Shown one piece after another: positions 23,965 through 64,000 of a stretch of DNA of 64,000 nucleotides. The translations under genes and the position numbers were made by a program. This stretch comes from Schmidtea polychroa (lineage: Eukaryota): positions 99,448,001-99,512,000 of the forward strand of contig CM097886.1 of the NCBI GenBank assembly GCA_044892525.1, given 5' to 3'. A model generated the notes under the pieces. The model saw only the letters and a list, made by a program, of their open reading frames with translations. It was not told the DNA's origin and did not search any database. Each line of letters opens with the position of its first letter. Position 1 is the stretch's first letter.

Positions 23965-23970
23965 AAAAAA

Positions 23971-24098
23971 NNNNNNNNNNNNNNNNNNNNNNNNNNNNNN
24001 NNNNNNNNNNNNNNNNNNNNNNNNNNNNNNNNNNNNNNNNNNNNNNNNNNNNNNNNNNNNNNNNNNNNNNNNNNNNNNNNNNNNNNNNNNNNNNNNNN
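23971..24098. other. Assembly gap (N run)
   Basis: Run of N bases. Confidence 1.
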
Positions 24099-38663: not shown

Positions 38664-41121
38664 CAGTGGTGCCCAACCTTTTTATCAAGTGGGCAACTAT
38701 TTAAATGAAAAAGTCTTTGCGGGCACATTTTTGAAAAATTAGTTAATAGAAAAATGATCTTATAACAATCTTTTTATTAGGAAACATGCATTTGTATTAA
38801 AAATTTAAAATAATAAAAATAATAATGTGAAACAAAACAAACAAATTTATTTATAACATCATTTTAATGCGGCTTTTGAATTTGAGTCTGGCTAACAAGT
38901 TGATCAATATCAGGATTGATTTTTGAATTTGATAATAGAATGAGGTTTTCCAAGTGAGCATCAGTGAGTGAACATCTGAATTTGCTTTTTATGTAGTTCA
39001 TTGAAGAAAATGTCTTCTCACAAATGTAAGTTGATCCAAATTTGACCACAAACCGGAGTGCCATGTTGTTAAGTTCAGGATAGTCATTTTTTGGAACAAG
39101 CTTCCAGAATGCTTTTAAGTCGGGTGAAATAGGTGATTCGCAAAGCTCTTGAAACTTTCTCTTTAATCCTGTGTGGTTTTGAATGTCAGTAATTTCCATC
39201 TGTATTTTTGGAGAATACTTGCTGATTTCACTTTCTGATATAGAGAATGGATTAATGAACAATAAAATGTTATCCTTCTCTGCCTCAAAGTCAGAAAATC
39301 GAGAAGAAAATGAATGAGACAAATTCATAATGGCAAGTTTGTATTTTTCATAGTCCAAGTTGACAGTGATTGAACTTTCAAGTTGAAATTTCTGAAGCGT
39401 GGGGAAAAGATCCAGATTTCCTTGAGAAAGACTGTTATAAAACAGTTTTAATTTTGCCTTAAATGCATTGATTCGATTGAATAGTGTTGGGAACAAACTA
39501 TTTTCACCTTGCAATCCTGTGTTCAAGATGTTCAGGTAATTTGTGACATCAACAAGAAAAGCCAATTCACTCAACCAGGAATTGTTTTTCAAAAGATCAC
39601 ACTCGGTAGGCAACTCTTTTTTTTCTTCCAAAAATTGCAGTACTTGGGTCCTTAACTGGAAAAATCTTGACAGCATTTTTCCCTTTGACAACCAGCGAAC
39701 AGAGCAATGGAGCAAAAGTTCACCACAATCATCGGTTTCCTCTTCAAACAGGGATCGGAACTCTCTTCTATTTAGAGATCGTGCTCTAATCTTGTTAATA
39801 CAGTGCACAGCTGTGTCAATAACATGCTTGAATTCCATATCCTTTGAGCAAAGAACTTCTTGATGAATAATGCAATGGTACTTAAAAAGTTTTCTTTTTA
39901 GATATTTTTCTAGAAGGGAAACACAACCGTTGTTTTTTCCAACCATTGCAGGAGCTCCATCTGTGCAGATACTTTCCAGTTGATTCCAGTTGAGCTTATA
40001 CTCGTTGATGCTTGAATTTTCCACACAATCTTTCAGTGCTTCAAAGATATCGGCTCCAGTTGTTGTGGTTTTCAGTTGACAAAGGCCAAGAAGTTCCTGA
40101 ACAACATCGAAGTTTTCATTGACACATCTTATATAAACCAGTAATTGAGCACTGTCAGTTGCATCACAGCTTTCATCAATTGCAATTGAAAAGTATTTTG
40201 AAAGTGAAGCAGCAACAATAATTTGTTTTGAGACATCATTGGCCATTTCTTCAATTCTCCGAGTAACTGTATTTCTTGAAAGTGCTATGTTTTTGGACAG
40301 CAATTTGTTTTTTGGGTCACCTGAGTTTTCAGCAAAAATAGAAATTGCCTCTTTTACCATTTCACCATCTGAATAACTTTTTTTTAATCTGGCAAGCAGC
40401 AGGGAAATTTGAAATGAAGCTTTTGTCATACCGTGCATTTCTTCTTGTCTTTTGGTAAAAAATGTTTGCTGAACTGCAAGTTTCGATTTTCTCTTTGAAA
40501 TAAAGTCAGTTCTGTCTGCAGATCCAATTGGGTATTTGATTTTGAATTCTGAATGCATCTGATTAAAATGACGTTCCAAATTGTATTTTTTATAGACTGC
40601 AACTGTGTCATTACAAATCAGACAAATTGGCCTTGATGATTGTGAATGTGTGAACAAAAATTGTTCTTCCCAGTTATTTCTTAACACTTGTTGCGCAGAT
40701 TTTTCATCTTCACGTTTTCTTTTTTGAGACATCCCTTTGCTGAGAGACATTTTTGTAAAAACAAAAATTATTTTTTTTATTTGGATAAATTGTTGTCCAC
40801 ACTGAGAGATTGTTTTTGGTTGACTGATTTAAATAGAGTTTTTTAACTAACGATGTAACGATATTTGAATTAATTAATTTTAATTTAAAGTAGGAAAAAA
40901 TTTAATTTTCTTGGAATTCCCATTTAATAATTAATTGTTGGGATTGATTAATTTTAATTTCGAAAATTAAAAATGCGCTTGTAATTCTCATTGAAACATT
41001 ATACATCTTAATGTTAAAAATTGATATTTTCTTTAACCGTATTTAGAAAAACACCCACGGGCATTTGAAAAAGTCTCCACGGGCACTTTTTTGCCCGCGG
41101 GCACTAGGTTGGGCACCACTG
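38664..41121 (-). mobile_element. Full-length hAT transposon (Charlie/Buster/SPIN-like)
   Basis: Perfect 16-bp TIR CAGTGGTGCCCAACCT and 8-bp TSD CTCTAACT with central TA. Confidence 0.95.
38864..40750 (-). CDS. Intact hAT transposase (GTF2IRD2/EPM2AIP1-like), 628 aa
   Basis: BED-like CLIC..RH..H, catalytic-type D (IAIDESCD), D (CTDGAP) and E (YICEKTFS), CIIHQE and RWLS motifs; no stops. Confidence 0.92.
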   Translation of the reverse strand: MSLSKGMSQKRKREDEKSAQQVLRNNWEEQFLFTHSQSSRPICLICNDTVAVYKKYNLERHFNQMHSEFKIKYPIGSADRTDFISKRKSKLAVQQTFFTKRQEEMHGMTKASFQISLLLARLKKSYSDGEMVKEAISIFAENSGDPKNKLLSKNIALSRNTVTRRIEEMANDVSKQIIVAASLSKYFSIAIDESCDATDSAQLLVYIRCVNENFDVVQELLGLCQLKTTTTGADIFEALKDCVENSSINEYKLNWNQLESICTDGAPAMVGKNNGCVSLLEKYLKRKLFKYHCIIHQEVLCSKDMEFKHVIDTAVHCINKIRARSLNRREFRSLFEEETDDCGELLLHCSVRWLSKGKMLSRFFQLRTQVLQFLEEKKELPTECDLLKNNSWLSELAFLVDVTNYLNILNTGLQGENSLFPTLFNRINAFKAKLKLFYNSLSQGNLDLFPTLQKFQLESSITVNLDYEKYKLAIMNLSHSFSSRFSDFEAEKDNILLFINPFSISESEISKYSPKIQMEITDIQNHTGLKRKFQELCESPISPDLKAFWKLVPKNDYPELNNMALRFVVKFGSTYICEKTFSSMNYIKSKFRCSLTDAHLENLILLSNSKINPDIDQLVSQTQIQKPH

Positions 41122-42520: not shown

Positions 42521-45500
42521 AAGGTTTAAGACTGCTGGAGGTGGTTGTCATAATACCAATAAATTGTCTGGATTTGGTGAAAATCTAAGTTAATAATTTA
42601 TTGATTATTTAGAAGATTCTTAACTTGGCACTCCTCACTGATGATAACCTTAACTGGACTGGATCTGAGATATCAATAACCCCAATTTTAATGACTTAAA
42701 TGATAATAATGTCCCGATTAATACGCAACAGAATTTTAGGAAATGCAAAAAGTGGTTGGCCCGAGAATCTTTCCGTTTTCTCTCCGCGATTGACCAGTAT
42801 CATTGGGGACCTTAAATGGGCCCTTAGAATTGTCCGTGTCAATCTTAACTATGGATAATGACCCTAATAACGACGACACTACTAGTGATAATCACGCTCC
42901 TAATAATCTCAATGCTAATAATAACACTAGGAGTACTAATGGCAACAATGATTATCATACTGAAATCAAGGGCAATAATTATAATAATTATGCGAAGGAT
43001 AAAAATTTAAGAAAAATTCTAATATTAATCCTTCTGATGATAATACAAATGATAGAACTTGTGATCGTTATAATGGCGGAACTTATTGTTGGGCTAGAAC
43101 TGATTTCTAGACCCAAAATACTAATTGTGACTGAAGCGCGTAGGTACACAGCAAGAAAAAAAGCACCAAGTATAGTTAAATATTAAAACCTACACCAAAT
43201 AAACAATATTAACTAAAGGAGAAAGCAACAAAAACATAAACAAAGAAATTAAACAAAATTATACAAAAGCAAGAAGTGATGCAAAAATCTAACTCAAAAA
43301 TAACCAAATAAACACAGGGTTACAAAAAACAGACTCGAATAACTTAAAAGACGATAAAAACAGTAAAACATTCCAGAAAAACCCAGAACATTCTATAAAA
43401 ATGGCGATGACCATCACAAAAGTTATCTAGAACAACAAAAGTTAAGGAAAATAAATAAATTAGTATTAAAAGTAAAAAATCTCAAAAAGAATTCATAAAA
43501 ACATCAGTTAAAATAAAAATTAAATTAAAAGTAAAATAGAATGTTCTGGAACCGTTCCAAATCCATCATGGACGTAAAATTAATGAAAAATAATTAAAAA
43601 ATAAAAATATAAAAATAAAAACAAAAATTATGGCACAAAAATTGCCATTAAAAATAGCAAAATCGTAAAATAGAAAATTCTGGAATAAAAAGAATTCGAG
43701 TTTGTTTTAATGCATCAATACATACACGTGTACTAAATAGGTATATATACCGACACGTTTCAGTCACAATAATCACTTTTATGCCAAATTTTTGTGACGA
43801 AATTTCCAAAATCGATAGTAAGCATTGATCTTTATTTGTATATTAATTGTTTAATTATATAGATGGTATTTTAAATTTATTTTTTTTTTTTTTGCTTAAA
43901 ATTTTTTGCGATGTATGAGTGATCAACGGCGTACTGGTATTCCTGCGTCGTTGTTCAGTCCTGCATCCAATTTATTAAAATCGTTATTAACAGGACATGC
44001 AGACACGCATTATCATTATTATAGTGATATTTATTATATGATTCCTTTTTGTTCGGGTCAGCCGGAGGTCGAACTACTTCATGGTCCTGCCATGGAGTTA
44101 GGTCGAGGAAACCCTCCGCCTGACTCTTCGTATTTATTTAAGGTCAGCCGTAAATGGTTGACTTAGCACACAACACTAAGGTTTGTGGACGTGGTCACAG
44201 TGGGGCCATGGAAGCAATATTCTTCCCGACTCATTGCGTAATATACAATTAAACTCAACACTTAAAATCCTGAACAATAACTCTACACTAAGGTTCTAAT
44301 TTGAGTAGAGCTCGTACCTAAAATTACACAATTCTACACTCACATTAATGTAGCTAGTTGATTCATAATGGTAATTTCAATTATACTTAGACATATGCCG
44401 AACTAGATTTTGTAGTAAGGATCTTTGATAAAGTAATAGAAATAAGAGAGATATTCGGCATACGTACAGGTATAACTTGATCTAGATATGCTGATTCCGA
44501 GTAAAGATAGACATTTTAAATCTAGTTCCCACTTTAAAATGTTTGTAAATGTGTAGGCTCTTAGTTATAATATTCTTGTTGTTAACTATAAAACTATAAG
44601 TTATAAATAATTACGATAGCTAGGTACAAATCACGTCGATCCTGAAAATGTAAATTGTTAATGGAGAAAGTCTGATCAGAGATAGTAGTAAACAATTTTT
44701 CGTATAAAATCAACTTAGGATTGGTTACAGATAGGCGATAGACGCGCTAGAACCCTGAAGTTTAATCCACAAATAGGACCAGGAAATCTGTAAGTACTGC
44801 GGAAAACAATGTTGATCATAGAAAGGAAGTTGTAAGAAGTATATTCCGTCGACTAAAAATTTCAAATTATAAAGTACGAAAATACGAATTACAAAAGTAT
44901 AAATTTTAGATTATAAACTTATAAATTATAAGTTAAGCAATTATAACTTATAAAATATGAATGTATAAATTTCAAAATATGAAATTATAATTATAAATTA
45001 CAAGATGGTAAATCCCTAAATTGAAAAATTTTAAATTATAAATCGAAAATTATCAAAGTATAAATTATAAAACATAAATTTATAATTCTAAAACATGGGA
45101 TTATAAAATTGTAGTTATCATAATCCTGATCATTTCTCTTGTTATTACTATTAGCAGTATCAACATTATCATTACTATTAGTATTATTATACTTATTCTT
45201 ATTATTATTATATTATTATTATCATTATTATGAATATCATAATTAGTATTATTATTATTATCATCATTATCAGTACCATTATAAAAATTTATTATTATTC
45301 TTGTTATTATTATTATTAGTATTATTATTATTACCATTATTAAAATTTATTATTATTCTAATTAGTATTACTATCATTGCTATTATTAATATTATTATTA
45401 TCATTATTATTATTATTATTAGTATCGTTATTTCATTGTTATTATTATTGGTATTATTACAGTTAACTACAAAAAAATCGATATCCCAATCCGATAACGA

Positions 45501-45982
45501 TCACCTGGAAATTTAGAAATTAGCAAATTAAATAAATTACTTGTATGCAGAGCAAACCACTCATAACGAGCACAACCGAAGGAAAGGCAAGCAGACGAGA
45601 AGCTAAGCTCGTTGTTAATACCTGTCGCCTCAGCGTACCCGAATTTAGTGGCAAAAGATTTAAACCCTGAAATTTTAAATTCGTGATAATATTTACATTA
45701 AAATACAAAAAATATAATTTAAATGTTCACTTAGTGATAAATACAAATTTAGAGAAAAATAGTTAATTAAAACAAGAGGATGGTTGATAAATTTTTTTTT
45801 GGGTTATTAGTAGACAAAATATGAAATTTCATTCTATGGTTCCTAGGATTATAAATGTTGGTCTTAAAATAAAATATTTCTTTTCATTTTCAAATTCTTA
45901 AAGGGAAAAAGGGTCAACAAAATCCTGTGTTTAACGTCGTATTACAATCAGTATAAAGTGGCTTGATTGTTCTTTTGTAGAA

Positions 45983-46348
45983 ATGTCCTATTCTGACAGT
46001 GATAGTAACGAAGCAGCCGACCGGCAGATGCTTACACGACTCCGGACACGGTACATATGGTACCGTATCCATGATTGGAACCGGGGCTTGGACCTCGACA
46101 ACTGGGGCCCAGTAATCAGGAGTGGGCCGGAACCGGACGCCCCAGCGTGGGTAAAAACAGAGCCCACAAACGATTTTTTGCAAGAGGCCCGCGACCGAGC
46201 GGCCATCGAGGTAGAAGCAGCTCAGATGCGACTCAAGAAGATCGAGCTACAAATCCAAGCAGAAAAAGAGGGAAAAACCGTGGAGGACCTAGAAGAGGCC
46301 GAGGCAACCCCGCGGAAGAGGGGAAGGCCTCGCAAGCGATTGAACTGA
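45983..46348 (+). CDS. LTR-encoded 121-aa AT-hook protein (copy B)
   Basis: PRKRGRPRK and VKTE motifs; ortholog of 25645-26010 with many synonymous differences. Confidence 0.75.
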   Translation: MSYSDSDSNEAADRQMLTRLRTRYIWYRIHDWNRGLDLDNWGPVIRSGPEPDAPAWVKTEPTNDFLQEARDRAAIEVEAAQMRLKKIELQIQAEKEGKTVEDLEEAEATPRKRGRPRKRLN

Positions 46349-46558
46349 CTCATCGTCAAAATTTTGTTTTTGCAAATTATCATTCAGTTGTGACTTTATT
46401 AAACTTTGATTTTAGTGATAATTATTTCAGTCCTTTTAATAAATCATCTTGTGTATTGCGTACTTGACATCCGAAACTATGTTTATTTATAATATTGATT
46501 TTATTTTATAATTGAATGAATAGCATGCTGCAAGAATATAATCGTTGAATTTATCTAG

Positions 46559-47028
46559 TGTTCAAACTATTGGAAAATCTGCGAAGAGATAGGGCAGAAG
46601 CTCAAAAACAGTCCGAGGAGCTCCGCATACGCGTAGACAAGCTCAAGGGACGGTGCCGGGAACTAGAAAGCACCTGGTTTAGTCCCGAGGATATGAAAAA
46701 GAAGGTGGCGCAGGTCCTTCAACTGCAGACGCAAGCCGCGCAGGATCAGATGGAGATCCGGGCACTGAAGCTCCAGCTCCGCGTGCTAGAAACCGAGCGA
46801 AATGAACAAGTAGTTCACGGAGCCGCCATAAGCCAAATCCGGCCGTTGACCGTGGAACTAGCAGCAATATACCCCCCGGCCGCGAAAGAGAAACCCAAAA
46901 GAAAGCGGTTAGGCCGAAATATTCGGGAAAAATTGAAGAAAGCTAGACTGGCCGAACACGAGCGACAAGCAAATTTGTCACTGGCAGCTGCGACGGAATT
47001 GACCAGTCCTACCAATAAGCCTGTTTGA
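46559..47028 (+). CDS. LTR-encoded coiled-coil/basic protein (copy B); no in-frame ATG near its start, likely spliced
   Basis: Homolog of 26368-26837 with a TAG|TG acceptor at 46557-58. Confidence 0.7.
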
Positions 47029-47433
47029 ACTTATATTCGGTTTTAGGTGTTTTGTAGTATTTTTATGTATTGTGGTAGTCTTCAAATAATATGTTCCTTG
47101 TTAAAATACTGCACGTTTTGTAGTGATAAAATAAGGACTAGTACAGTTTATGATTGCCTGGGAAATGAGAGTTGTGCATAAGGTTGGGAAAACAATTTTG
47201 ATAAAGGGACCTGAGAAATCGGACACACACCTTCTATCGGTAGTCCGTGAACCCACGGAGTACTCGACAACTATAGTGCTTTGATGCGCTCACTTTTTGC
47301 GAGTACTCAACCCTTGGTACAGTACCAACGTTGATCACTCAACGGGTACCAAGCGGAAAAACAATGTTGTATTTTGGGTTACGCTGGTAACAGCACTCAA
47401 TCATTCAACCACCAGTAACCCACCATACAAATT

Positions 47434-47451
47434 TGGGGGCTCAGCCGGGAT
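47434..47451 (+). promoter_or_regulatory. Primer-binding site, tRNA-Pro type
   Basis: TGGGGGCTCAGCCGGGAT is 16/18 identical to the canonical Pro PBS TGGGGGCTCGTCCGGGAT and lies 8 nt after the LTR end. Confidence 0.85.
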
Positions 47452-48151: not shown

Positions 48152-48634
48152 ATGGAATCAACCGGCTACATTACAAAGAGACTCGAAAAATTCGTAGATT
48201 TAACACACAATTCGTTACAACGGCTAAATCGCAAAGCGGACCAGTTGATAAAAATCCAAGATGAGATGAGCTTGAATCCAAGGCCGCAAGCTGAGGAAAT
48301 ATGCGTAATGATGAAAATAGCGACACCTAATGCAGAATTGACCACTAAAAGAGTTTATCAACTTCAAAATTTACGATTAGACAATGCCAAATTTAACATC
48401 AAATGGCAGGAGATAATGATAAAAATGGAAACGATCGAGGAAGAAATTAAAGAAGCAATCGAACATCAAGTTAAAGATTTTAGAAAATGCTTCATATGCA
48501 GAACCAATGAAATACGAGTAATGACGATTCCATGTGGTCATTTATGCTACTGCGAGAATTGCGCAGAGAAAATTAAACGATGCAACGTATGCGATACGAA
48601 TGTTAGAGAGAAAATTGTAATATACCTCCCATAA
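48152..48634 (+). CDS. 160-aa coiled-coil protein with a C-terminal C3HC4 RING of IAP type (no BIR domain visible)
   Basis: CFICRTNEIRVMTIPCGHLCYCENCAEKIKRCNVC..VREKIVIYLP-stop has RING-HC spacing and an IAP-like hydrophobic tail. Confidence 0.85.
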   Translation: MESTGYITKRLEKFVDLTHNSLQRLNRKADQLIKIQDEMSLNPRPQAEEICVMMKIATPNAELTTKRVYQLQNLRLDNAKFNIKWQEIMIKMETIEEEIKEAIEHQVKDFRKCFICRTNEIRVMTIPCGHLCYCENCAEKIKRCNVCDTNVREKIVIYLP

Positions 48635-50041
48635 GGAGATGTTGTCAAATAAATTTCTTGTGAATGAATATGAAGTGATAAAATTAGTAAATTATATTAA
48701 AAATCCATTATAGCAACCGAAAGGTGTAAAACATACGATGAACATAGACATATAAAGGACACAAAATACGTTAAATAAATAGACAAGCAACACAGCAATT
48801 AGAACTAAAATCAAAGTTGAATGCAGGACTGATCATAGTCGTATGAATGAGCTGATCGCTAAGATCAGTACGATTTTTATTTCCAATTTTCTTTTCTTCC
48901 TGTTTGTTATTTTGGCATAAAGAGATACGATAATGAGGGGATGACAAGTGAATAGTCCTTACGACACTTGCCCGGATGGGGAAATCCTGATCACCCTGAT
49001 GAGAGAATGTAGTAGGATCCATCGCAAATGTTGGGGAGTTTCTGTCCAGTGACTGATCACCACTTGTGGGAAACGAACCAACGCGATTATTATATTTTTT
49101 GTCTGGGAGACTGGGACTAACTAAAAGGGCGAATAAAAATAGAAAAATAAAATAAAAATTGAAAAACGCGCGCTAAACGTTAAAAATTTAATCCGAGAGC
49201 AGCTGCGGATTTGAAGAAACCGTTTTTGGACTTCAAATCAGATGAGAATAATGATTTTTCCCTAGCGAGTGATGAGGCACCCGAGTACAGCGGCTAACCA
49301 CCGGACTGTAGTGTCCAGGAGATTATCGGCCAAGGGACTGATGATGCTGGATCACCCAATACAAAAACCCGGATGCCACACCGAGTATTGGGCGCACTTT
49401 TTTGAGTTGCTAGCGGGACTTGATACAAAAACCCGGAAGGGTAGCGAGCGAGAGAGACCCAGTTACCTACACCGAGTATCAAGGAGCCCAGTGAAACGGT
49501 TGTGAGATGCGAGTCAACCGGTAAAGGACTCGTACTCAACAGGCAACCAAGATTGGACCAGTTGTGAGGCGGGAGACCGAGAGTCAACTGCATACCCAAT
49601 TTCCTTTTAGCTTCACTAGTCGGGAGATCTGGTTCATCACTTTTGAGAATCACGATCAAGGCGATTAGGCATTTCCGTGTTTTTTAAATCCTGATAGATA
49701 GGATGTTTTTTCTTCGTGATTATTGCTAGCAGGGGTCGGTACAAAACCCGGATGCCCACACCGAGTACCGATAGGCCCAGTGAAACGGCGATGAGATTAG
49801 AGTTACCGGTATTAGACTCTTTTCAATAAGCGGCCAAGAATTGAGCCAGTTGTGAGGCCTCAGCAGATTAAGAGTTGGAGTAGGAGGAGCCTCGAATTTT
49901 TGATTAGCCCGAAAGTCAACTGTCAACTCAATTTAATCGCGGTAGGGACGATAGTAGGTGTTAAAACCGAAGGCGTCTGGGGGTTGAAGAAACCTCATTT
50001 AGGGCATTTGAAACCGGTCAGGGACCGAAGACCGCGAATAC

Positions 50042-50483
50042 GGCGTAATGGTGTAAAAGCCCAGGCGTCTAGGAGTCGTAAAAGACTTCAATTTTGATTA
50101 AACCGGCCGGAAGCCGATGCCGACGCGGAGGTCTAACAAACCAAAGCGTTGATGGATAATAGTAGAGTATATGGCGTAATGGTGTAAAAGCCCAGGCGTC
50201 TAGGAGTCGTAAAAGACTTCAATTTTGATTAAACCGGCCGGAAGCCGATGCCGACGCGGAGGTCTAACAAACCAAAGCGTTGATGGGTAATAGTAGAGTA
50301 TATGGCGTAATGGTGTAAAAGCCCAGGCGTCTAGGAGTCGTAAAAGACTTCAATTTTGATTAAACCGGCCGGAAGCCGATGCCGACGCGGAGGTCTAACA
50401 AACCAAAGCGTTGATGGGTAATAGTAGATTATATGGCGTAATGGTGTAAAAGCCCAGGCGTCTAGGAGTCGTAAAAGACTTCA
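50042..50483 (+). repeat. 131-bp tandem repeat, ~3.4 near-identical copies, in the element's leader
   Basis: Units start at 50042, 50173, 50304 and 50435. Confidence 0.95.
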
Positions 50484-51554
50484 TGAGATTAAAATGAGTT
50501 GATTAAACCGGCCAAGGAGCCGATGGTAATTGAGTGAAATGATTTAAATGAAAATAAAGGAGTTGAACAAACCGGCCAGAGAGCCGATGGTAAATAAAGG
50601 TGGATGTAGAGGTCGCGCGAACCAAAGCATCAATGATTAACTATGAAATTGATTAAACTGAAATAGATTAAGTGCGATAAATATGTAATGAGTAGAGGAG
50701 AATTATGATAAAGCGCCGGCGCAAGCGAAAATTAAACCAGTTTTTGGATGGGGAAAAGCGAACGAATAGATAGTAGTTGAATTATTGAATTTTATTTTGA
50801 TATTTATGTGATTAATATTATATTTCTATGATAATTATAAAAGGGATAGATAATTGATACGACTATATAGATAATTGATACGAGTTATAGATAATTTAAA
50901 ATCAACTTAAAATCAAAATGGGGCGAATAGCGAGAAGTGTAGAAAAGCTAGAAAATTTGAAGCGAAGGGACAGTAAAATAAAGGGAAAAGGAAAGTAAAT
51001 GAAGGGTTTAATAAAGAGAATTTATGATATGTACTAGAGGTGTTAATTATTTTAGAATAAAGCAAACAATTCAGAAAGAAATCAAAGAAATCAAGAAAGC
51101 AATAGAAATCAAGAGATATAGAGAAATCAATTAGAAGCGAAGAATCAAGGAAATTAATAAAACCAAATCCAAGAAGAGTTAGAGAATCGTAAAGATTAAA
51201 GCGAGAAAAATACTTAGAAAACATCGAGCTCGATTGACAAAGTAGAAAATTTATCAAAGGATATTAAAAGGAGGAAAAATTGATAGCATAGCTAACCGAA
51301 CGAGACGAAAAAGTAAAGGAAACCTCAGTTTATTGGAAAAGGAAGAGATACAAAAGGCCAAGACCAACAGAAAACTACACAGGAAGCCAGCATCAGTAGA
51401 AACAGTATTTGAATCAGACAGTTTAACAAACGAATTTGAGAACAGCGACGATCTTAAACGAACCGAACTAGATCCGATAAGTGACATTGAATCATCAGAC
51501 GAGGAAGGAAATAGTTCAGAGTCAACCAATATAACAATTTTGTGTCAAGAAATA

Positions 51555-52538
51555 ATGACAGACGGAATTCCAAATGTAACAGGGCTAACGGACCCACCGG
51601 AAACAAGTAATGTGCACGTCAACATTGGAGAATTCAGAGAGAAATTTCGAGGAGAGCCATTCGATGGAAATATAAACCAGCTGGAAACGTTTATAAAGGA
51701 ATTCGAAGTATACATTACGATATGTCACTGGCCAGACATAGTCGTACGAGAACGAATACCCCTATATCTAAAGGGAAGCGCCCAAGATGTATACTTGGAG
51801 GCGAAATGTGATGCAACTAAGTTGAGAACGTGGAAAGAGATCAAGGAATTTTTAATAAAAACATTCGGTACCGAAAAAGAGGGAAATCGGAAAATGTTAG
51901 ACTTTCTGCATCGAAAGCAGAAATATAACGAATCCAACGCACTGTACGCATGCGAATTGAGACGACTAGCACGAGAAGCCTTCGATTCAAATCAACCAGT
52001 TCCGGAAGACAAAATAATAGCCGTATTCGTAGATGGCATGAAACGGGAGGATATACGAGCAACTTTGGGATGCCGAGCACCAGAGACGCTGGAAGAAGCA
52101 CTAAAAATAGCTAACAAATGTGAAACTTACCTAACACCAATACAAGTAGCAGCAATGACAGCAGCCCCAGCAGCTCCAGCAACAACAGCAACAACCACAA
52201 ACAACCAAGTCAATAATGCAAATCCAGTAATGAATCAATTCATCCCAGGATCGCAACAGTTGTTCAAAACTCCACAAACAAGAAACCAAAACAATGGAGG
52301 TAATATTCAAAATTTTACTAATAATTTCAGGAACAACGACATCAACAATCGAACGTGCAACATATGCCAACGACCAGGGCATTGGAGCAATGAATGTTAT
52401 AAAGCAAGGATGTGTCAAAAGTGTGGGAGAAGAGGCCACACGGAAAATGTCTGCAGAGGACCCATGATGTCTATGAGCAGAGGAGGAACCAGAACCTGCT
52501 ACAATTGTAATCAGCCTGGACACATGGCAAGAGAATGC
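51555..52538 (+). other. Polyprotein domain: Gag capsid-like region with three CCHC zinc knuckles (52356-52538)
   Basis: FRGEPFDG..WPD..LYLKGSAQDVY..WKEIKEFL; CNICQRPGHWSNEC, CQKCGRRGHTENVC and CYNCNQPGHMAREC. Confidence 0.9.
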
Positions 52539-55500
52539 ACGATGAGAACCAAACCAAATCAACCAGGATCAAACAATCCAGTTCAGAACACACAAATCAA
52601 CCTCATGCAGGAAATCGAACAATTAAAAGATATGATCCTGCGAATACCGACTAATAACCAACAACAACGAATCAACATGATGCAGAGCACCGAGGAAATC
52701 CGGAACCAACCAAGTAAGCAACAACAAGATCAGCAACGAGTCGAATGGCAAAGATTACAAAACGAGGAAGCCAGAGAAATTCAAGAAAGATGGAAACAAC
52801 GGGAAGCGAATCCCGGAAGAATAAATATGATGAGATTAACAAATAAAGAGGAATCGCACACTGCGGAGCAGTGTGTTAACAACGACGGGAGTGAACCGAT
52901 AATAAACAAGGAGATAAAAACGACAAAAGAAGATGAGATTGATCCACGAACAGAATTGAGCAGTGAAGAGAAAATACAATTGATTAAAGAATTTACCAAA
53001 GAGGAGAAAGAAAGGAGACAAAAGAGAGATGAGAGTAAAGACGAACCAAAAAACAATGAGATAATTACAAAAAATCGAATTCAGAGGGTACTACTACAAA
53101 AAATCGAAGACAGAATCAAAAACGAAAATCCTACATTAACTGAGGAACAAATAAAAGAAAAAGTGAAAGAGCATTGGTTCAGGAAAAATGAGTGGTTTGA
53201 AAAGAAGGAACCACATACCAAAGCTAAAATAAACATGCTGAGACAAATGCGGAGCGATCAGACGGATCAGGAAGATGAGAAAAGTGAGGTGAGTAGCCTG
53301 GGAGGCGAATTATTTCAGTCAAGTGAGGAAAATAACGAACCGAAAACACCTCCAAACAGTGAAACACCTCAAAGTAGTGAGGAGAGTGAAAATGATGACA
53401 TGAAATCAATGATAGAAAAAGATGAAGAAGAGATATTCGAGGAAATTCTCGACACAGTAACAGAAATAGAGCGAAATGAGAGCTACATCAACGAGTTAAC
53501 ATACAGAAAATGCTTAAAACTTATAACTCAAGTATACCAGTGTGAAGGAGGTATAATAACGGCAGCATGGAAAGATTTAGCAACAAAATATAAAGAGAAA
53601 CTAAAGGAAGCAGGCCCAGATCAATATCAAGTAAGTATTCAACACCCCGAGATTCAGATACAGACTATTGAATTAAAAGGAACAAATACCGATGAACTGT
53701 ACAACTGGGTACAGGAAAAAATGGGAACGAGCCATAAAAATAAACAATTATATGTCGATGGTTACAAAGTTAAAATGGGCATACATTTGGTAGATGCGAT
53801 GATATGGCCAAACGAAACTAACATCTTAACCTTAGAGAAAACCAGAGATGACGACTCGGTAGCAGAAATGTTCAAGAAAATCCAACAAGTGTTTAACAAT
53901 GAAGTGGAACCAGAATTGGAAAAGATCGAACGAAAAATAATGAAAGAAAATCAAATAATCTTAGTCAAACAAGCTATCGATCAGACAAGGAAATACATTA
54001 ATAGACTGAGAGAAAGATGGCCACAACTAATGAAACAATTCGTTAAAGACGTACGAGACACGGAAATTATGAGATTCGAAGACAAACGAGCGACAGAATT
54101 GATATCTAAATACGGAGAATACGAGAGAACCAAATGCGAGCATGAAACGATGAAAATAAAGGTGAAGTTGCCAAATGAAGAGAAACAAATAATAGAAGTT
54201 AATCCCGATTGCCAAGTTGACGAGTTAGTGCAAATCATAGATCAAGAGATCATCCAAAAAGCTCGAGAAAATAGTGAGGATGGAATGATCGAAGATGTGA
54301 TAATAATGTACAACCGGCACATGCTAGAAAGAGGAGACCGAACTGTAATTTACGAACTAGGAATCTGGGAAGATGGAGCCGTCATCAATATAATCGCGAT
54401 GGATGAACCATCTGGTGGGCACAAAAACGCCACGAAAACCGAGCAACAAATTAAAAGATTCCAATGGGGAATGAGGGCAAAGATGGATCGAATAATAGAT
54501 ATTTATAACCATTGGCTAAAGGATGATAAACTAAAACTAGCAGCCTTCAATGACGAAGATTGCAAACTGATACCATGGAAAAAAGTGTGGATCGAAAGTG
54601 AAGCTCGATGGGATTGGGAGCAGCAAAAGTTGGAACCAAATTGGATAGATAATATACCCGAAGAGATCGCAGCAGTATGGGTAAGAGAGAAACCGATCGA
54701 TACTTACCAGGATATATTACCACAAGAATTCCAAAATGAATTACCATCAGGAGAAGATGAGGAGATACGAGAACCGGTAAAGTTAGCACCATTCACGTGG
54801 AAAATTGAGAATTGGATGGAAAAGATAAAATCAGCAAAGGAAGAGAAAATCACACGATTAGTAAGTCCACCGTTCTACTCAGGATTAGGTGAGTACAAGA
54901 TGAAATTGCGAATATACCCGAACGGAGACGGGATAGGTAAAGGAAGTTATGTGTCGGCATTCTTCGCCATCTGCAAAGGAAATTATGACGACAAGGTACC
55001 ATGGCCGTTTAGCAGAAAAGTGACGATAGCAATCGAACCATTGAAAGATAGCCTTAACATGCATAAAGAAACATTGAAACCAGATCCAAGGAGCGCCTGC
55101 TATCAACGACCAACAACATCAGAAAATATCGCTTCTGGGACACCTAAATTAATACGTCTAAGTTACATTGAGAATGAGCAGTCAAAATTTGTGAAAAACA
55201 ATGCTATCCAGATCAGAGTAGAAGTTGAAACAGAACAAGAAATGAACCAACGACTGAACATACCAGAAAATCAACCGAGAATCTGTATGATGAGGAGAAG
55301 AGTGTCTGATTCAGGACATCTACCAATAGACGCAGATGCAGATGAGGAGGAAGCAGCAACATTGTTGGAAGCACAAAAATGTAAGGAGTTGATGGAGATA
55401 TTACAAAACGGGGCGAAAAATCGTCGACGAGCGGTGGTAGAACTAGCAAAATGGATAGCCGAATCATGCAAAAGGATTCAAAATCTACGAAAGATCGTTA

Positions 55501-58500
55501 AAGCGATTGAAGAATATAGACGGGTATACGTATGGTACCCTGAACAATTTGGTGAAATCATCCGGAAATGGAAACAACAAGAGTGGGCCGAAAACTCACC
55601 TGAGAAATATCAATTAAAAATATTCATGCCAGATTTTGAACCAATGGAAAAGGAATTCTATACGACAGCTAAAGTCAGAGAAGTTAAAAAGAGAATACCT
55701 TATGAACTCCCATTCCACTTACAACACGAGGGACGATCATTAGACGACGATATTGAGATCGGTGTGACACCACTCCAAGGAGAAATTGTGAACAGATTAA
55801 CGGTGAGTAAAATTGCAGGTAGAGAGCTAAGGAGAAGAGAGATAAAGCAAAAATCATCCACCCAACAACCAGGAAGTTTGGACACACCAGAAGTTCCAAA
55901 TGCGGTTAGTGAAGTGACGATCGAAACAACGGGAGAAGACGAAATACTGAATGAATTACAAGAGATAGTAGAAGCAGGCGAGATTATGAGAGCATCGCAA
56001 TCAGGAGATCTATTTATCGACGAAGGTGAACCGACAACTGATGATTTAGATGGATTTGTATGCGCGCAGAGACAACCAGTGGAAACGACGGAAGCCGAGA
56101 CGGATTTAGATAACGTGGAAAGAGGTGCCAATAAAGATGTAACCACAACCGATGAATGGAGCAACTGGAGAGTAGATCCAGGAGCGACCACGTCAAAAGA
56201 TACAACTTACAATCCGCCAAAACGGAAAGAAACCGGAACAGCTATGGATCGACGAACAAGAGGAAGACCAAAAACAGATAAAGCAGAGATCGAACCAAAA
56301 TCCAAAGTTCAGGCGCAAATGGAGCAGGTAAAAACTAAAATGGATAAACTAAGTGCATTAGTAAAACAAGTGAAAGTGAAGACAAGCGTCCGAGAACAAG
56401 GGACACGATGGATAAATGACCTATTAGCCAACGTGTTAGCATTAGCAAATCCAGAAGTGAAAAGAGTCATGAGGAAGGATAATATTCCGACCGAAGCCAA
56501 ACAATTATGGGCAGTATTGAAACCGATAATAATGAAAATCATGGATAATAAAATTCGATTAACGTTAAAAGATCCCGTGGAACTCAGATTAATTGTGGAA
56601 CATCTATTAAGCAGATCAGAGGACCAAAATCGATTTTTAGTGGGATTAGCATATTTAGTATATAACGTTATCGGTCAATATAAAAAACGAATGCCAAAAT
56701 ATAACGCAACGGGTTACGAATTCACAGTAACAGAAATAATTAAACGATCAATAGAACCATATATACTTGAACAAGGGGGATGGAGAAGCTTCATCGAATC
56801 AACTGGGAAGAAAGATCAAACGGAAATGATGCAAGCAAAGTTACGCGATTTGCTAACTGAATTCGAAGGAACAATCAATATAAACGACCCAAGAGCAAGT
56901 CGAAAGGGAATGAATGCCATAATAACCACGATATTGATATGGATGATGTGTATCAAAGGAACGGAGTCATTTGCAGTATACGACTGCGACAACATAAAAA
57001 TCCATGAGAAATATTCATTAAAGGATACGGAAGACTGTAAAGCGGCAAACCCAAGAAAATTACAAACAGTCATGGCATCAGTCTCGTACAACGTATATCA
57101 AGAAGCAGATTTCATCAAAACTATGGTCCAAGAGTGTACGGTAACCAGAAAGATATTCGCACATCACTGCGGTTCATCCTCACACTCAACAATCATAGAA
57201 CCAGGATTGGAATCGACAGTAATATTACTATCAAGAGAGGAATGCGAGGAAGGGTTCCGATCAGGGAGAATCCACTTAAGGCAAGGGATTGAAATCGCCG
57301 CAGAACCAGGAAAAATAAAAACGACTCGCGTATATACGGCGGGCAGAATCACTAAAGGAGACGGAACATGTGAGACAGGAACATACACCTTGAACGGACA
57401 ACTGGTTAGTGGAGTGGTCGTAATAGAAAGTTACGAAGCTAAATTGGAAAAGTATCAAGGCTACTTTGACCCTGACACGCAAGCAATGAAGAAATACCCA
57501 AGCTGTCTCGCATCAGATCGATCATGTTCAACCGGAATGTCAACTCTGGTATACCACGCAGATCAGAAAGTATGTCGACTAATGTTACTCAAGACAGCAG
57601 TATTCGAAGAAATCCAAGGGAAAGTGTACAGTGAACCAAAAGGAGAAGCAGAGAGACGAGCGATGGAAGAATTGAGAGCAAGGAAAGGATTCAGGGAAGA
57701 CGTAATAACATCGAAATTGGAATCGGAAGTAACACCCACAGCGATAATCTCCAAAGACGATGGAATAGGAATGAGGTTCATAAAGAACAAAATGGTGAGT
57801 AAATGCGATGAGATGGTGATCAGCACCAATTATAAAGGGATCTACTTGTCGCGGAGAACCCTAGCAAATGCAGTCGGAAGACTAAGCGAAAAGGATGTCA
57901 AATTATATTTATACGCTAATAATAAGATGGATTTCTTATATCACAGAGGATTAACATCTACGGAAAAAGTCTACCATGATCTGTTAAGAAACGATTGCCT
58001 GCTCAACAAAGAAATATTGAGAACAAAATTAGCAATGGCGATTACAAATCCAGATAACGCAATTCCACTACTACCATTACAGGAAGGATATTTCGGACGA
58101 ATCGTGGGCAAAGTGATGTACACCTACCAATGCAAAAAGATAATGGCAAGATTGCCGGAAAACCCTACAATACCAAGGGATAAGTGTGCAAACGAACTCG
58201 AAATTATTCACGAAGGTAAACCCAGGTTTGTGCAAGCAGTCACTAGGATAATGAACCCGGTAGGGTTTCAGCCAAATCTGTTCAATTGCAGTAATGCATA
58301 TGGACCAATGTATGAAAAAGAAGATGGACAATGGGTTCAATTTCCAAGTAAAACAATCGTAGTGACACCCAAGAAATTTGGATTGACGGAACTAACAACA
58401 GAATTAGAGTTCAAGCCGATAGACGTATCACAGAGTGGATTATATACACCAAAAGATCTTGAATCAGCAAGGGCCCACATGTTATTCCCAGCACACAGAC

Positions 58501-61500
58501 AAGCGATCCTATCAAATATAGTGACTATTTCTGGAGGAAATAATTATGGGGAGAGCCCAAATTACGAGCTATTATTATCACCAAGTCACTATCAACAAGC
58601 AACAGCAAACATGATGAAGGCTATGTGGGGTCGATTTTTGGTATTTGGCCAAATGATGGCAGGAATACTCGGAATTATTCTGATAATACAAATAGTCAGA
58701 GTAATACTAACCCAGATGCTAGCATGTTTTGACATCTATAAGCGCGAGAGAAAAGTAAATTGGAAACTTGCAATTGGATTCTTACCGTTCTTAGCGAAAA
58801 CAATGGTGTTGCATGGACACTCAAAGGATATTCATCGAATAAAAAGATTGTTGAAAATACTAACGCAAATGAAAGGGACAGACGAAGAAGTCGGACGTAA
58901 GTTCAAAGTGATAATGAGATTAGAAGCAGAAAGAACTCAAGAGAAAGCAAAAAGAACCGGGAAGTGGAAAAAGTGGATGAACCTCAGACGAGACGATGAT
59001 AGTGACAACGACAATGATGATTTCAACGACGATGATAATAACCAAGGAGGAGCAATGTTGATAAATAAAAATACAGCCACTTGGGAAAACGAAAAAATGA
59101 AACCATGGGGATCACCGTATTCACAGACCCCATATTTACAAGCACCAACTAATGGACCAATGCGACGACCAGGAACAATGAGAGAACGGATAAGAATGGG
59201 AACCGGAAGATTACCCATACCGAACATTTATCCAACAGCTTATGAACCAAATTGGGCAGCAATGGATCCAACGATGATCAAACAGGCTAAAAGTGTAGAA
59301 CAAGAAGTGGAGACACGAACGATTGCGGTATTGCAGACACCAGCCGGACCATCATTAACCATCACGGTCGAAGTAAACGGAATAGAAATGGATGCAATGA
59401 TCGATACCGGAGCAAATATTTCGGCAATAAATATGAATATGCTACCAGGCAGACTATGGCCATGCATTGAAGAGACAACCATGGATGTAATAACATGCAG
59501 CAAACAATCCATAGCGGTGGTAGGAAGAGTATGGTCAACGATTGAATATAAAGGGGTTAAAGTTACAACGTACCTCGCAGTCATTAGACAGCTAAGCGTA
59601 TCATGTATAATTGGAACAGATGTAATGCCGGAATTATTGAAAGAAATTGTGATTGATTTGAGTTCCATGAAATTAAAAGATAAAACTGGACAGATATGCA
59701 CAATGAGAACAGAAGTGAGATGCTCCGAAAAAATGATAATACCAGCACGTACCCAGACAATATGTTATGTCAAGGTCGATAACGAAGCCAAAGGAGATAT
59801 GATATTTGAACCAAGTCAAAAATTCGAGAAGAGAAGGGAGCTGCCATTGGCAAGAGAAATTGTCAGTATAAATGAGGATAACGAGATACCCATCAATATC
59901 ACCAATTTTGATGAGGAAGATAAAGTAATCTACGAAAACGAGAGACTTGGAAAACTCACACCAATGATGAACATTGAGCTACCGGAGATAAAAAGCGAGG
60001 GAGCAGACGAAAAAGAATTATGGACCATCGATAGCGAACTCCTAAATAAAGACGAAAAGGAACAACTCAGACAACTACTGATTGAGTTTAAAGATATTTT
60101 TGCGGCTTCAGATTTGGAATTGGGTACTAGCGATGTAACTCAACACATTATACCATTAACAGATGAGACACCCATAACGTTAAGACCATATCGATTGGCT
60201 GAAGCACAAAAAACGGTAGCAGAGGAAGAAGTACAAAAGATGTTAGATGCTGGGGTAATAGAACCTAGTTGCTCACCATGGCAATTCCCAGTGGTAATGG
60301 TCAAAAAGAAAGATGGCACACAGAGATTTTGTATTGACTATCGGAGGTTGAACGCAGTAACAAAAAGAGATACATATCCACTGCCAGACATAAACGAAAT
60401 GTTACAGATGTTGCATGGAGCAGCATACTTTACATCTTTAGATCTAAAGAGTGGATACTGGCAAATTAAAGTTAAAGAGGAAGATAGAGAAAAGACAGCC
60501 TTTACCATCGGAAAAGATTTATATCAGTTTAAAAAGATGCCATTTGGATTAACAAACGCACCTGCTTCGTTTCAGAGATGTATGAACTTTGTGACACACG
60601 GGATCAAACAATGTATGGTGTATATCGATGATCTGTTAATTTATTCAGGTACTTTCGAGCAACACTTAATCGACATCAGAAACGTATTCATAAGACTGAA
60701 ACAATGGAAGCTGAAATTGAAACCGTCAAAATGCGACTGGGCAAAGGAGAGAGTCACATTTTTAGGACACATTGTGTCGGCAAAAGGAAAAGAACCAGAT
60801 CCGAGAAACATTGAGAAAATAAAGAATTGTCCGATACCAAAAACCGTGACTCAGGTACAAGAATTTCTGGGATTATGCGGATACTACCGCAAGTTTATCA
60901 AAAATTATGCAACTATCGCAAAACCAATTCAAGAACTAACAAAAAAAGATACTCCATTTCTGTGGGAAAGGGAACAGCAAATAGCTTTCGAATCGCTAAG
61001 AGATAAACTAATAGCCTCGCCTATCTTAATCCACCCAGATTTCAAAAAGCCTTTTTTATTAGCAACTGATGCAAGTGGATACGCATCAGGAGCTGTGCTA
61101 GGACAATGGGATGAGGAGAAAAGAGAAAGAGTCATCGGATATTATAGCAAGACGTTCAAAAAACACGAGAAGAATTACTCGGTCACAGAAAGAGAGGCCT
61201 TAGCAATAATTCAGGCGATAAAACATTTCAAATATTTATTGTGGGGACACGAGATAATTATTACTACGGACCATCAACCTCTAGTTTGGTTGGGCCAACA
61301 TAAAGAGGCATCTAGTCGATTGATGAGATGGGCAATGCAGTTACAAGAATATTCTCCATACATCAAATTCAAGTCAGGAAAAGCAAACGCAAATGCAGAC
61401 TGCATGTCGAGATTTGTATTTGAAGAACTCATGGATCATGACGTCAGACGAATATGCCTGATAATCGCGGAAGATATCGATTTTACCAATCTAAAGAACG

Positions 61501-64000
61501 AACAAAAGGAAGACAATGAATTAAAACTAATAATTGAGTTCCTGGAAAAAAACGATATGAAAATATTCAACAACGATGATCGACTAAAAGAACACATGGA
61601 GAAAAATCGTCACAGATATACGATCGAGAAAGGATGGCTATTGGTAATGGATGGCGACAAACGATTGATGTGTCTACCAGAAAGTAGACGGAAAGAAATT
61701 ATGATTCAATACCACGATGGTAAATTGGGCGGACATATGTCAGCCAAGAAAACAGAAGCAAGGCTCAAACAGAAATATTACTGGCCAAATATGAGCGATG
61801 ACGTGAAAGAATGGATAAAGAACTGCCTGATATGCGCAACCAGAAAAACAACGGGCAGTAAACTAAAGCCACCATTGAAACCAATGCCGATACCGCCAGA
61901 ACCGATGACAATGATTGCAATGGATGTAGTTGGACCACTACCAGAGACTAACAGTGGAAATGTGTATATATTGGTAATAACTGATTATCTGACTAAGTTC
62001 CCTGAAGCATTTGCGATGCCAGACCAGAAAGCACGAACGGTTGCAAGGATATTAGTGGAAGAGATCTGCTGCAGATATGGAACACCAAAACAAATCTTAA
62101 CTGACCAAGGAACTAATTTCATGAGCGAGATAATAAATGAAGTGACAAATTATTTTAGAATTGCCAAATTGAGAACCTCACCATACCACCCGCAAACGAA
62201 TGGTCAGACAGAAAGATTTAACGGCATACTAATAGACATGATGTCCAATTACGTGAGTAAACATCAAAAGGACTGGGATGAATATATTAAGTTGTGTCTA
62301 ATGGCTTATCGAATGTCAATACACTCAGCAACGAAAATGAGTCCGTTTAAACTCATGTATGGAAGGGAATGCAACATGCCGATGGATCTCGAATACCAAC
62401 CGCCAATCTCACAATATATGGAGATAGATGATTATGTGACAAAGTTCAAGGAGAGAATGCAAGAAATATGGAAAACCGCAGGGATGAACATCCGATTCAA
62501 CCAAGAGAGTTATAAGGAATTACATGATAAAAAGAAGAACGTGCAAAACCATCAATTTAAAATCGGAGATTGGGTTATTATAGAAACACCCGAATTAATC
62601 CCAGGAACAGCAAAGAAATTACAACGTAATGGCAGAGGGCCATATGAAATCATCTATGTAAACGAGAACAACGCTAGAGTGAAGTTGGTTAACAATCCAC
62701 TAATTAGACCTATTTATGTGAATACATGTCGATGCAAAGCAGTAGCGAAAACTGCCACTAAAGACCCAGAAACAAGAAGGATAATCACGAGATCACAAAC
62801 AAATGCCACAACGGAACCAGAAGTAAGCGGTAGATTAACTAGATCACAGACAAGACGGATATTCATGTTGAGAGGAGAAACAAGCAGCAGCGCCCATAAA
62901 GGAACTGAAGCAGAAAGCGAAGCGGACGCAATGGCAAGGAGCCAAGCAACATGGAATATGACAGTAAAAATAGCACGAGAAATTGTACCAGAATGGGCCG
63001 ATATAACCAATAAATACCAAGTGTTGGGCAAACTAATGTTAGTAGCAGAAAGATATGCGAAAGGACGAAGATATGCCGAAGGATTACAAATACCGACTCA
63101 AATATATGAACTAATCCGGAGATTACCAATCATGTTCCTAACAAGTGATTTGAGTAATAACTGGCCAATCCATCATGCAGTGAAAGCAGGACAAGAAAAA
63201 CGAGCTTTAGAGATTATACGAATAATGGAAAACTGCAAACAATCAACAAACGTCAAAAACAGTAAAGGAAAAACTCCACTGATGAAAGCCATAGCAATAG
63301 GCGCGTCAAGAGATGTACTCAGAGAATTATTAAGAACGGGATCCACGCTGAAAGAAAAAGACAACAAACAACGAACCGTATTACGTTATGCCGTCAGGTC
63401 AAAAAGACCTAGTATAGTGAACTTTATCACAGGAAATGCAACAACCGAAGAAGCCGAGGTATTGGGACAGAGCATTGAACCAATTCTGGAAGCCATCAGA
63501 GGAAACTTAGACAGAACCGCAGCAATATTAATCAAATGGAAACAAAACGAATTAAGAGCGGAAGTAATTGATATAAATCAATTCCAAAACAACGAAAATA
63601 TCGTACTAAGAAGCGCCATATACTCAAGACCACCAATGCCAAAAACCATTAAAGCAATATTACAGAGAAATAGAACAGAATTGACAGGTAATTGGTGGAA
63701 ATGCACAAAAACACATGCGATGAAAAAGCAACTAGAAATACTAGTGTGGGAATGGCACCGGAAACAACGGAAATATCAAGGAACCAAAGAAGAACGAGAA
63801 AGTATCCACAACGACAAAAAAGAGATAATTAAAAAATACGAGGAGATGATCAAAGCAGCAAATGTCGAGGACGACATTTTCAGGAAAACCCCGGGTGAGA
63901 GGAATGACGACGACGACGACGACGAAAGGATGGGGGATAACGATAACAACCCAGAGGAAAACGACAGAGAACAGAATCCGGAAGGCGGAGAAACAACGAG
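51555..64000 (+). CDS. Gag-cargo-Env-Pol polyprotein, at least 4148 aa, 3'-incomplete (frame open from 51246; first ATG 51555)
   Basis: Line-by-line hand translation found no stop from 51246 to 64000. Confidence 0.93.
   Translation, partial: [4148 protein letters not shown]
53625..53840 (+). other. Polyprotein domain: ubiquitin-like domain 1
   Basis: [46 protein letters not shown]..ILTL follows the ubiquitin beta-grasp pattern. Confidence 0.55.
54150..54419 (+). other. Polyprotein domain: ubiquitin-like domain 2, ending in Gly-Gly
   Basis: [61 protein letters not shown]..SGG aligns with ubiquitin MQIFVK..EVEPSDTIENVK..LIFAGKQLEDGRTL..LRGG. Confidence 0.7.
54792..55229 (+). other. Polyprotein domain: TRAF-type MATH domain
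   Basis: [69 protein letters not shown]..IRVEV closely follows the TRAF2/3/5 TRAF-C sequence. Confidence 0.92.
55608..55805 (+). other. Polyprotein domain: ubiquitin-like domain 3
   Basis: [46 protein letters not shown]..LTV. Confidence 0.6.
56400..56798 (+). other. Polyprotein domain: Bcl-2-like helical domain
   Basis: BH2-like [16 protein letters not shown] (compare Bcl-xL LEPWIQENGGWDTFVE) and a degenerate BH1-like [11 protein letters not shown]. Confidence 0.6.
56910..58730 (+). other. Polyprotein domain: chuvirus-like envelope glycoprotein (signal 56910-56969, ectodomain, TM ~58623-58730)
   Basis: The Cys/motif pattern YDC..[65 protein letters not shown].LGI matches my recollection of the chuviral G family. 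Confidence 0.8.
59330..59660 (+). other. Polyprotein domain: retroviral-type aspartic protease
   Basis: [10 protein letters not shown] (DTG at 59403-59411) and CIIGTD. Confidence 0.92.
60140..61412 (+). other. Polyprotein domains: reverse transcriptase and RNase H
   Basis: RPYR, [32 protein letters not shown], YIDD (60621-60632), FLGH; RNase H TDAS, E(REALA), TDH and ADCMSR. Confidence 0.97.
61713..62720 (+). other. Polyprotein domain: integrase (HHCC, D-D35-E, GPY)
   Basis: H..GH..CLIC; D at 61923, D at 62103 and E at 62211 (35-residue spacing); GPY at 62637-62645. Confidence 0.97.
63162..63660 (+). other. Polyprotein domain: ankyrin repeats (3-5) C-terminal to integrase
   Basis: [26 protein letters not shown] and [14 protein letters not shown], plus further degenerate repeats. 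Confidence 0.8.

Follow-up and report, generated by a model that had tools for sequence, protein, structure and literature searches.

A Burro-type LTR retrotransposon of Schmidtea polychroa encodes a polyprotein in which a predicted Bcl-2-fold domain stands shortly ahead of the internal signal peptide of the Env glycoprotein. On balance, it seems probable that this signal leaves the Bcl-2 piece tethered on the cytosolic face of the endoplasmic reticulum (ER). The window, i.e., the whole stretch of DNA analysed, covers 64,000 nucleotides (GenBank assembly GCA_044892525.1, contig CM097886.1, positions 99,448,001 to 99,512,000 of the forward strand); window positions are used below, and all features of the element lie on the + strand.

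The succession of a BCL2-like and an env domain is already published (PMC6431247). The anchor idea is new; it is deduced from topology and is unproven. Our literature search returned no published statement of it; Lee et al. (2026) and Grohme et al. (2018) may treat the junction. The proposal gives a testable topology to a domain which was previously just a listed motif. If true, it would constitute a route to a tail-anchored Bcl-2 that bypasses the usual post-translational path; if the tether is removed, the finding reduces to a confirmation of the published annotation.

The retrotransposon and its polyprotein

The element is a Ty3/Gypsy retrotransposon of 34.4 kb in total. Its 5' LTR (43087..47425, about 4.34 kb, TG...CA ends, delimited by self-match and reading of the flanks) is 99.98% identical to the 3' LTR over a 4,340-bp self-match. 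The 3' twin is located 9-13.5 kb beyond the window end, and a 4-bp target duplication, TTAT, flanks the element. The element is young. A PBS-like sequence read directly inside the 5' LTR (47434..47450) resembles, as we presume, a tRNA-Pro primer. It is followed by an accessory ORF with a RING finger (48152..48634; Pfam zf-C3HC4_3, E 3.4e-12). According to Pfam, the accessory ORFs of the element encode a TRAF zinc finger with MATH, a BIR with RING, and a RING. Five of them are situated between the polyprotein and the 3' LTR (L013:2275-3738, 3879-5057, 5137-6738, 6969-7778 and 7816-8841, +), including the TRAF zinc finger plus MATH and the BIR plus RING ORFs; the other three have no firm family. 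The leader of the element contains tandem 131-bp repeats, three to four units, at 50038-50525.

At least 150 near-identical copies are present in the source genome: 150 of 1,686 candidates were scored, all of them 97-100% identical, and the region compared is stop-free with a continuous frame in 150/150. When diverged copies of the same family were sought via Env, only 99-100% matches were retrieved among the 150 scored of 1,916 candidates.

The sequence-only reading of this DNA omitted the setting of the domain and the glycoprotein, a Burro-type retrotransposon for which both BCL2-like and env domains had already been described (PMC6431247). In the Burro/GYPSM1 planarian Gypsy-like elements a BCL2-like motif is listed and env lies in frame between BCL2 and the protease; these elements likewise exceed 30 kb, carry a BIR domain and exist in very many copies (PMC6431247). 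Their ORF has 4,873 aa versus 4,791 codons here, and both include Gag, zinc knuckles, MATH, ubiquitin-like, BCL2-like, env, PR, RT, RNase H, IN and ankyrin parts (PMC6431247). The long LTR pair, the length above 30 kb and the single ORF with Gag, MATH, BCL2-like, env, PR, RT, RNase H, IN and ankyrin (compare PMC6431247) make the element Burro-type by anatomy, an assignment that follows the described layout. Unlike the present analysis, the available part of PMC6431247 does not discuss the signal peptide or membrane topology.

Three further features of the window lie outside the element: an older interrupted LTR relative (20518-27234, 72-84% identical to the element's LTR), a perfect 341-bp inverted repeat (22916-23256 and 23630-23970, 373 bp apart) beside N stretches, and a hAT-like transposase ORF of 654 codons (38864-40828, - strand).

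The Gag-Env-Pol polyprotein frame (51246..63998, first Met at 51555) has 4,251 codons in the window and, as the adjoining genome sequence shows, runs past the window end to give 4,791 codons from stop to stop. Pfam recognises zinc knuckles, ubiquitin-like, MATH, Monjiviricetes fusion glycoprotein, protease, RT, RNase H, integrase and ankyrin domains in it. The MATH domain (54792..55226; MATH_2, E 1.1e-28) is followed by RICMM (55278..55292), a candidate site for the element's own protease and the last such motif before the Bcl-2 domain, picked post hoc from the sequence. A ubiquitin-like stretch in the interval between MATH and Bcl-2 (55611..55811) was recognised by eye, without a Pfam match, and agrees in position with PMC6431247. 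A second by-eye ubiquitin-like stretch is found at 53622-53831, and the Pfam ubiquitin-like match covers residues 969-1001. Motif search located an AT-hook-like motif, RGRPK, upstream of the Bcl-2 domain at 56259..56273.

The Bcl-2-fold domain delimited by profile and predicted structure (56382..56825, model residues 13-160) is followed by the charged linker (56826..56909), which is partly predicted to be helical and has basic residues at its end. Then come the hydrophobic segment and the chuvirus/gB-type (class III) Env ectodomain (56970..58655; Monjiviricetes_fusion, E 2.4e-70, 237.7 bits against a cut-off of 27) with a C-terminal transmembrane helix (58656..58709, by hydropathy), which we infer to bring the chain back to the cytosol ahead of the protease. 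Pfam places the protease at 59361-59636, reverse transcriptase at 60300-60776, RNase H at 61038-61352 and integrase at 61677-62192, which is the Ty3/Gypsy order over 59361..62192; ankyrin repeats (63168..63431; Ank_2, E 1.1e-7) follow.

The motif [RKQ]I[NCAF][MLIVT][MLI] (RINMM/RICMM type), defined after the fact from the sequence as a putative protease site, occurs 10 times in the polyprotein (window 52593-63000), several times at domain borders. A scan found none from residue 1349 to the signal peptide, the window linker included. In the related family B of the source genome the linker holds an INVE-like stretch, a possible protease site, and the strict motif is absent from all of family B.

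The polyprotein ends with a second type I membrane protein (L013:200-1621, +) consisting of another internal signal-like segment, an ectodomain, a TM helix and a basic tail. It follows integrase, plus ankyrin in the window's family, and family B ends likewise (L046/L047 frame, residues about 2775-3053). Searches of Pfam and the protein atlas gave no useful match for it.

The Bcl-2-fold domain

The sequence-only reading proposed a Bcl-2-like helical domain closed by a BH2-like motif, IEPYILEQGGWRSFIE; this motif is present in frame at 56751-56798 and has the BH2 pattern W/Y-I-x-x-x-G-G-W. Taken alone, the domain is recognised poorly. It falls below the cut-off of Pfam Bcl-2 (PF00452), its comparison with Bcl-xL by sequence gives E 0.44 over BH2 only, a PDB-sequence search was not significant and a protein-atlas search retrieved only unrelated low-recognition matches. 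Word-index homologue searches confirmed 0 of 1,660 and 1 of 1,930 candidates, by a method that cannot show absence.

Relatives of the domain provide the missing connection. A profile of 10 sister domains, from which the window was excluded, gives the window domain 35.9 bits versus at most 9.0 in 500 shuffles, and 14.4 bits versus at most 8.1 with BH2 cut away. Pfam Bcl-2 matches 10 of the 13 members of our retroelement alignment A2 at E<=0.05; relatives from outside the source genome score 16.5-23.6 bits against PF00452, for which the cut-off is 31.4. A profile of the retroelement domains matches Bcl-xL at E 1.5e-5 (10-row alignment A1, one row of which, L054, was wrongly taken from Env).

The AlphaFold2 model of the domain, built from the 13 rows of A2 (retroelement sequences only, without host Bcl-2), has pLDDT 61.4 and pTM 0.60. 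In a wide structural search with this model, rows 1-31 of the best 50 are all of the Bcl-2 fold and the first unrelated row has Z 6.4. The best match is A179L (Z 11.7, rmsd 2.9, 139 aligned), at a Z below the search tool's caution line for helical bundles. In the AlphaFold/Foldseek check suggested with the original reading, all 41 PDB matches listed by Foldseek belong to the Bcl-2 family and 6 of the top 10 viral ones are named Bcl-2, BALF1, BHRF1 or Bak, with no match at E<=0.001.

A domain unrelated to Bcl-2, in which a GGW motif arose by chance within a helical bundle, would account for the failure of the direct Pfam search, the unrelated protein-atlas matches and the modest confidence of the model. 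The sister-profile scores, the match of the retroelement profile to Bcl-xL, the Pfam matches of relatives, the domain tree described below and the structural matches speak against it, as does the BCL2-like call already published for Burro elements (PMC6431247). We consider chance resemblance largely refuted by transitive homology and fold match, its probability being almost negligible. The proposed Bcl-2-like fold is upheld by the sister profile, the relatives and the model, and we regard it as highly probable, as a prediction. As the BH1 and Pfam tests for strict family membership failed, the domain is best named Bcl-2-fold.

BH1 was aligned with relatives at 56601-56657. The reading had pointed out that the NWGR signature is lacking, and indeed the window has SEDQNRF there, with DQNR in place of NWGR: in the alignment with Bcl-xL, W and G are lost and R is kept. 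The same W and G are absent from 11/11 retroelement rows, nine of which keep R/K; the BH1 W is kept in 6/7 host-like rows. The NWGR glycine is required for BH3 binding in Bcl-2 and Bcl-xL. Since W and G are gone, a canonical groove and canonical BH3 binding by this domain appear doubtful. With such a degenerate BH1 the domain would act via a non-canonical surface, most likely as an ER-side modulator of cell death or stress.

Viral Bcl-2 homologues (ASFV A179L, EBV BHRF1, KSHV Bcl-2) have the same fold at 8-15% identity and are likewise carried by selfish elements. They are free-standing DNA-virus genes with their own tail or none, whereas the domain described here sits inside a retroelement polyprotein and is devoid of the BH1 W and G.

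The Env signal peptide as a possible tether

The segment MNAIITTILIWMMCIKGTES (56910..56969) begins 37 residues past the end of BH2, close to the 35 or so of the original reading, in the same + frame, and is directly followed by FAVYDC (56970-56987). The reading called it the only hydrophobic segment. A 17-residue hydropathy scan bears this out from the frame start to residue 2,470; three more such stretches exist in the window part of the polyprotein. The segment has the features of a signal peptide: a net charge of +2 precedes a core of 13 residues, none of them charged, and small residues occupy -3 (T) and -1 (S), the register being set by 71 of 85 relatives.

Among the 119 outside relatives collected, 93 have the start motif [AGV][YF][DN]C (VYDC in the window), 85 of them with at least 17 residues before it. 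An A, G or S lies three residues before the motif, where the window has the S of GTES, in 71 of these 85; at six neighbouring offsets a small residue is found in 2, 0, 19, 33, 19 and 16 of 85. The peak at -1 is also seen where the segment is internal (21/28). In 57/85 relatives the segment is N-terminal (Met at most 45 residues before the motif). An inner Met may have been taken as the start in some of them, which would then be fragments, but a dozen are full-length glycoproteins standing alone, of 650-720 residues. The internal peptide is homologous to these N-terminal signal peptides. The Bcl-2 domain has no cysteines and the Env ectodomain has 14, as expected at a border between cytosol and lumen. 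It is very likely that the segment is a cleavable Env signal peptide, and the GTES/F cleavage site proposed by the reading agrees with the small residue which the relatives have at the same position. Fusions to immunoglobulin domains and to an L47 domain of mitochondrial ribosomal protein type occur among the outside Env relatives (P0103 and P0024).

The mechanism which we infer for cleavage, retention, processing and function would be as follows. Synthesis of the Gag-Env-Pol polyprotein would start in the cytosol; once the internal signal peptide emerges, it would target the ribosome to the ER and bring Env into the ER lumen. Cleavage at GTES/F by signal peptidase would leave the upstream chain, which ends in Bcl-2 domain, linker and signal peptide, on the cytosolic ER face, where the signal peptide would hold it at least until trimmed. 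The element's protease would probably free Gag and MATH upstream; if the RICMM-type motifs are its sites, the mature piece would comprise about 560 residues and end in the signal. The peptide would be Env's own and predate the Bcl-2 capture, the Bcl-2 domain having been inserted before it without a tail and so borrowing this one.

The segment is first of all Env's signal, and the tethering of Bcl-2 follows from topology: sequence preceding an internal signal remains cytosolic and attached until a further cut. We regard at least temporary tethering of the Bcl-2 piece to the ER as likely; for the signal peptide as a stable working anchor of that piece the balance is nearly even and tips slightly to the negative. 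The order is fixed: in 12/12 Bcl-2-bearing sequences measured, 42-76 residues separate the BH2 Trp from the cut, and a further hydrophobic tail is absent. In family C the hydrophobic core begins 21 residues past the BH2 Trp, and the spacing is similar in the Bcl-2 gene L031. Such a spacing is close to that of the true tail anchor of Bcl-xL. The retained C-terminal anchor claimed by the sequence-only reading is deduced from topology and agrees with the fixed order, but the comparison with Bcl-2-free relatives does not favour it: the internal signal peptide occurs without Bcl-2 in 14 of 21 informative outside polyproteins, including P0002, the window's nearest Env relative, and no anchor-like change accompanies Bcl-2. 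The core is neither longer nor more hydrophobic in its presence (median uncharged length 13 with Bcl-2, n=12; 14.5 internal without Bcl-2, n=14; 12 N-terminal, n=57). The insertion score of the signal core is weak, 4.2 versus -0.1 for the Env helix. Known internal signals of this kind are, moreover, often removed afterwards (PMC7601889).

Such removal is the basis of a different reading, in which the peptide is cut and then eliminated by signal peptide peptidase or the element's protease, the Bcl-2 piece is soluble and its position reflects just a tolerated insertion site. The short, weakly hydrophobic core with Thr and Cys, resembling plain signal peptides, would fit it, as would the variable linker (21-57 residues among Bcl-2-bearing sequences), the absence of Bcl-2 from 5 of the 14 rows in the window's Env clade, and the HCV and flavivirus precedents (PMC7601889). 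We nevertheless hold it to be rather unlikely: the domain stays within 76 residues of the cut in 12/12 sequences, while ubiquitin-like, MATH and ankyrin cargo is placed elsewhere, and the window linker has no protease-like motif.

The opposite outcome is an uncleaved signal-anchor: Env would stay joined to the Bcl-2 piece, which would coat the membrane or particle from inside. This would resemble the Env leader of foamy virus, which is a stable part of the particle with type II topology (PMC7828637), and gB-type ectodomains are reported to have either a signal peptide or two transmembrane domains at their flanks (PMC13524379). Given the sharp small-residue peak at -1 in relatives, both overall and in internal cases, and the T at -3 and S at -1 of the window, this outcome is highly unlikely. 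Env could also be translated chiefly from a separate message, spliced or started internally, that begins at the signal's Met, which would make the peptide an ordinary N-terminal signal and leave Bcl-2 in a different product; the peptide does start with Met in the window and several relatives. L054, P0003 and P0017 have no Met there, however, and the frame is intact in every scored copy, which makes a separate message hardly probable at all. The preferred reading remains a cleaved Env signal left on the Bcl-2 piece as its tether.

Signals with two functions are known in other systems. The flavivirus capsid anchor doubles as the prM signal, and the viral protease releases the capsid; HCV core is freed from the core-E1 signal by signal peptide peptidase (PMC7601889). 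In both, as proposed here, a glycoprotein's internal signal is the C-terminal tether of the preceding cytosolic protein; the difference is that their upstream protein is a capsid and its tether is removed (PMC7601889), whereas here it is a captured host death regulator. The foamy virus Env leader represents the retained case among signal-anchors (PMC7828637). By analogy, the arrangement would combine the action of a viral Bcl-2 with that of a signal-anchor of the flavivirus kind. GAG-ENV-POL errantiviruses of flatworms, nematodes and bryozoans also carry a gB-type Env between gag and pol, with the ectodomain flanked by a signal peptide or first transmembrane domain (PMC13524379); the words "Bcl" and "Burro" have 0 occurrences in the text and 7 supplements of that paper.

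A captured IAP of Burro elements reportedly protects the stem cells of planarians, the anti-apoptotic cargo tested being Burro1 B-IAP (Lee et al., 2026, Dev Cell; as described in PMC13465017), and the element studied here has a BIR-RING accessory ORF too. The Bcl-2-like domain would add another conserved fold of a death regulator, this one within the main polyprotein, and Env biogenesis would place it on the ER one-to-one with Env. That throughout the lineage signal peptidase makes a tail anchor for the Bcl-2 fold from the Env signal, one regulator per Env, with the regulator acting independently of BH3 in a survival kit with IAP, TRAF and RING cargo, is a tentative suggestion which we would sooner expect to fail than to hold.

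Distribution and origin of the arrangement

Four Env-bearing families of the source genome and 7 outside proteins share the order Bcl-2, linker, signal peptide, Env. Family B, with a polyprotein of about 3,050 codons, was recognised in a Pfam scan of the source genome (Pfam Bcl-2, 28-32 bits), and families C and D were found via an Env scan; each of the three has a Bcl-2-like domain before Env. Upstream regions were examined in 25 of the 119 outside relatives, chosen for at least 63 residues before Env. Against a profile of 7 host-like Bcl-2 exons, 6 of them match at E<=2.5e-7, P0017 matches weakly, 14 do not match and 4 are too short.

In the domain tree, built from a short alignment and with long branches, a 95/96 branch separates all 11 retroelement Bcl-2 domains from the host-like rows; this is compatible with a single Bcl-2 capture by the retroelement lineage. 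A quick Env tree of 35 rows places the 9 Bcl-2-bearing rows within a clade of 14, whose support of 85 falls short of the level that the tool treats as firm. In this clade 5 rows lack Bcl-2, among them P0002, the window's sister (support 97). Internal signals without Bcl-2 are also present outside this clade. With midpoint rooting of the Env tree, our reading is that Bcl-2 may have been gained once and lost about three times. GRP[KR] precedes the Env motif in 4/19 outside proteins and in family B, i.e., in elements with and without Bcl-2, so that the AT-hook-like motif before the signal marks the Bcl-2 insertion point.

On the Bcl-2 core, two family B pairs gave dN/dS values of 0.10 and 0.20, and the comparison of families C and D, in which dS is near saturation, gave 0.19. 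Two family C pairs gave 0.47 and 0.67, which corresponds to weaker constraint.

A further Bcl-2 gene, which has introns, occurs in multiple copies in the source genome and encodes a hydrophobic tail of its own (L031, L034, L044 and L045; context in L068-L071). The neighbouring ORFs have A32-like ATPase, integrase, TBP and weak PolB matches, suggesting a Polinton/Maverick-like element, so two unrelated mobile elements of this genome carry Bcl-2 folds. As a donor of the retroelement domain this gene was rejected, since the domain tree, with its short alignment and long branches, groups it with host-like genes and not with the retroelement rows. A 3.2-kb inverted duplication, 98% identical (L068:4024-7244 and L069:249-3433), holds the Bcl-2 gene together with a PolB-like ORF.
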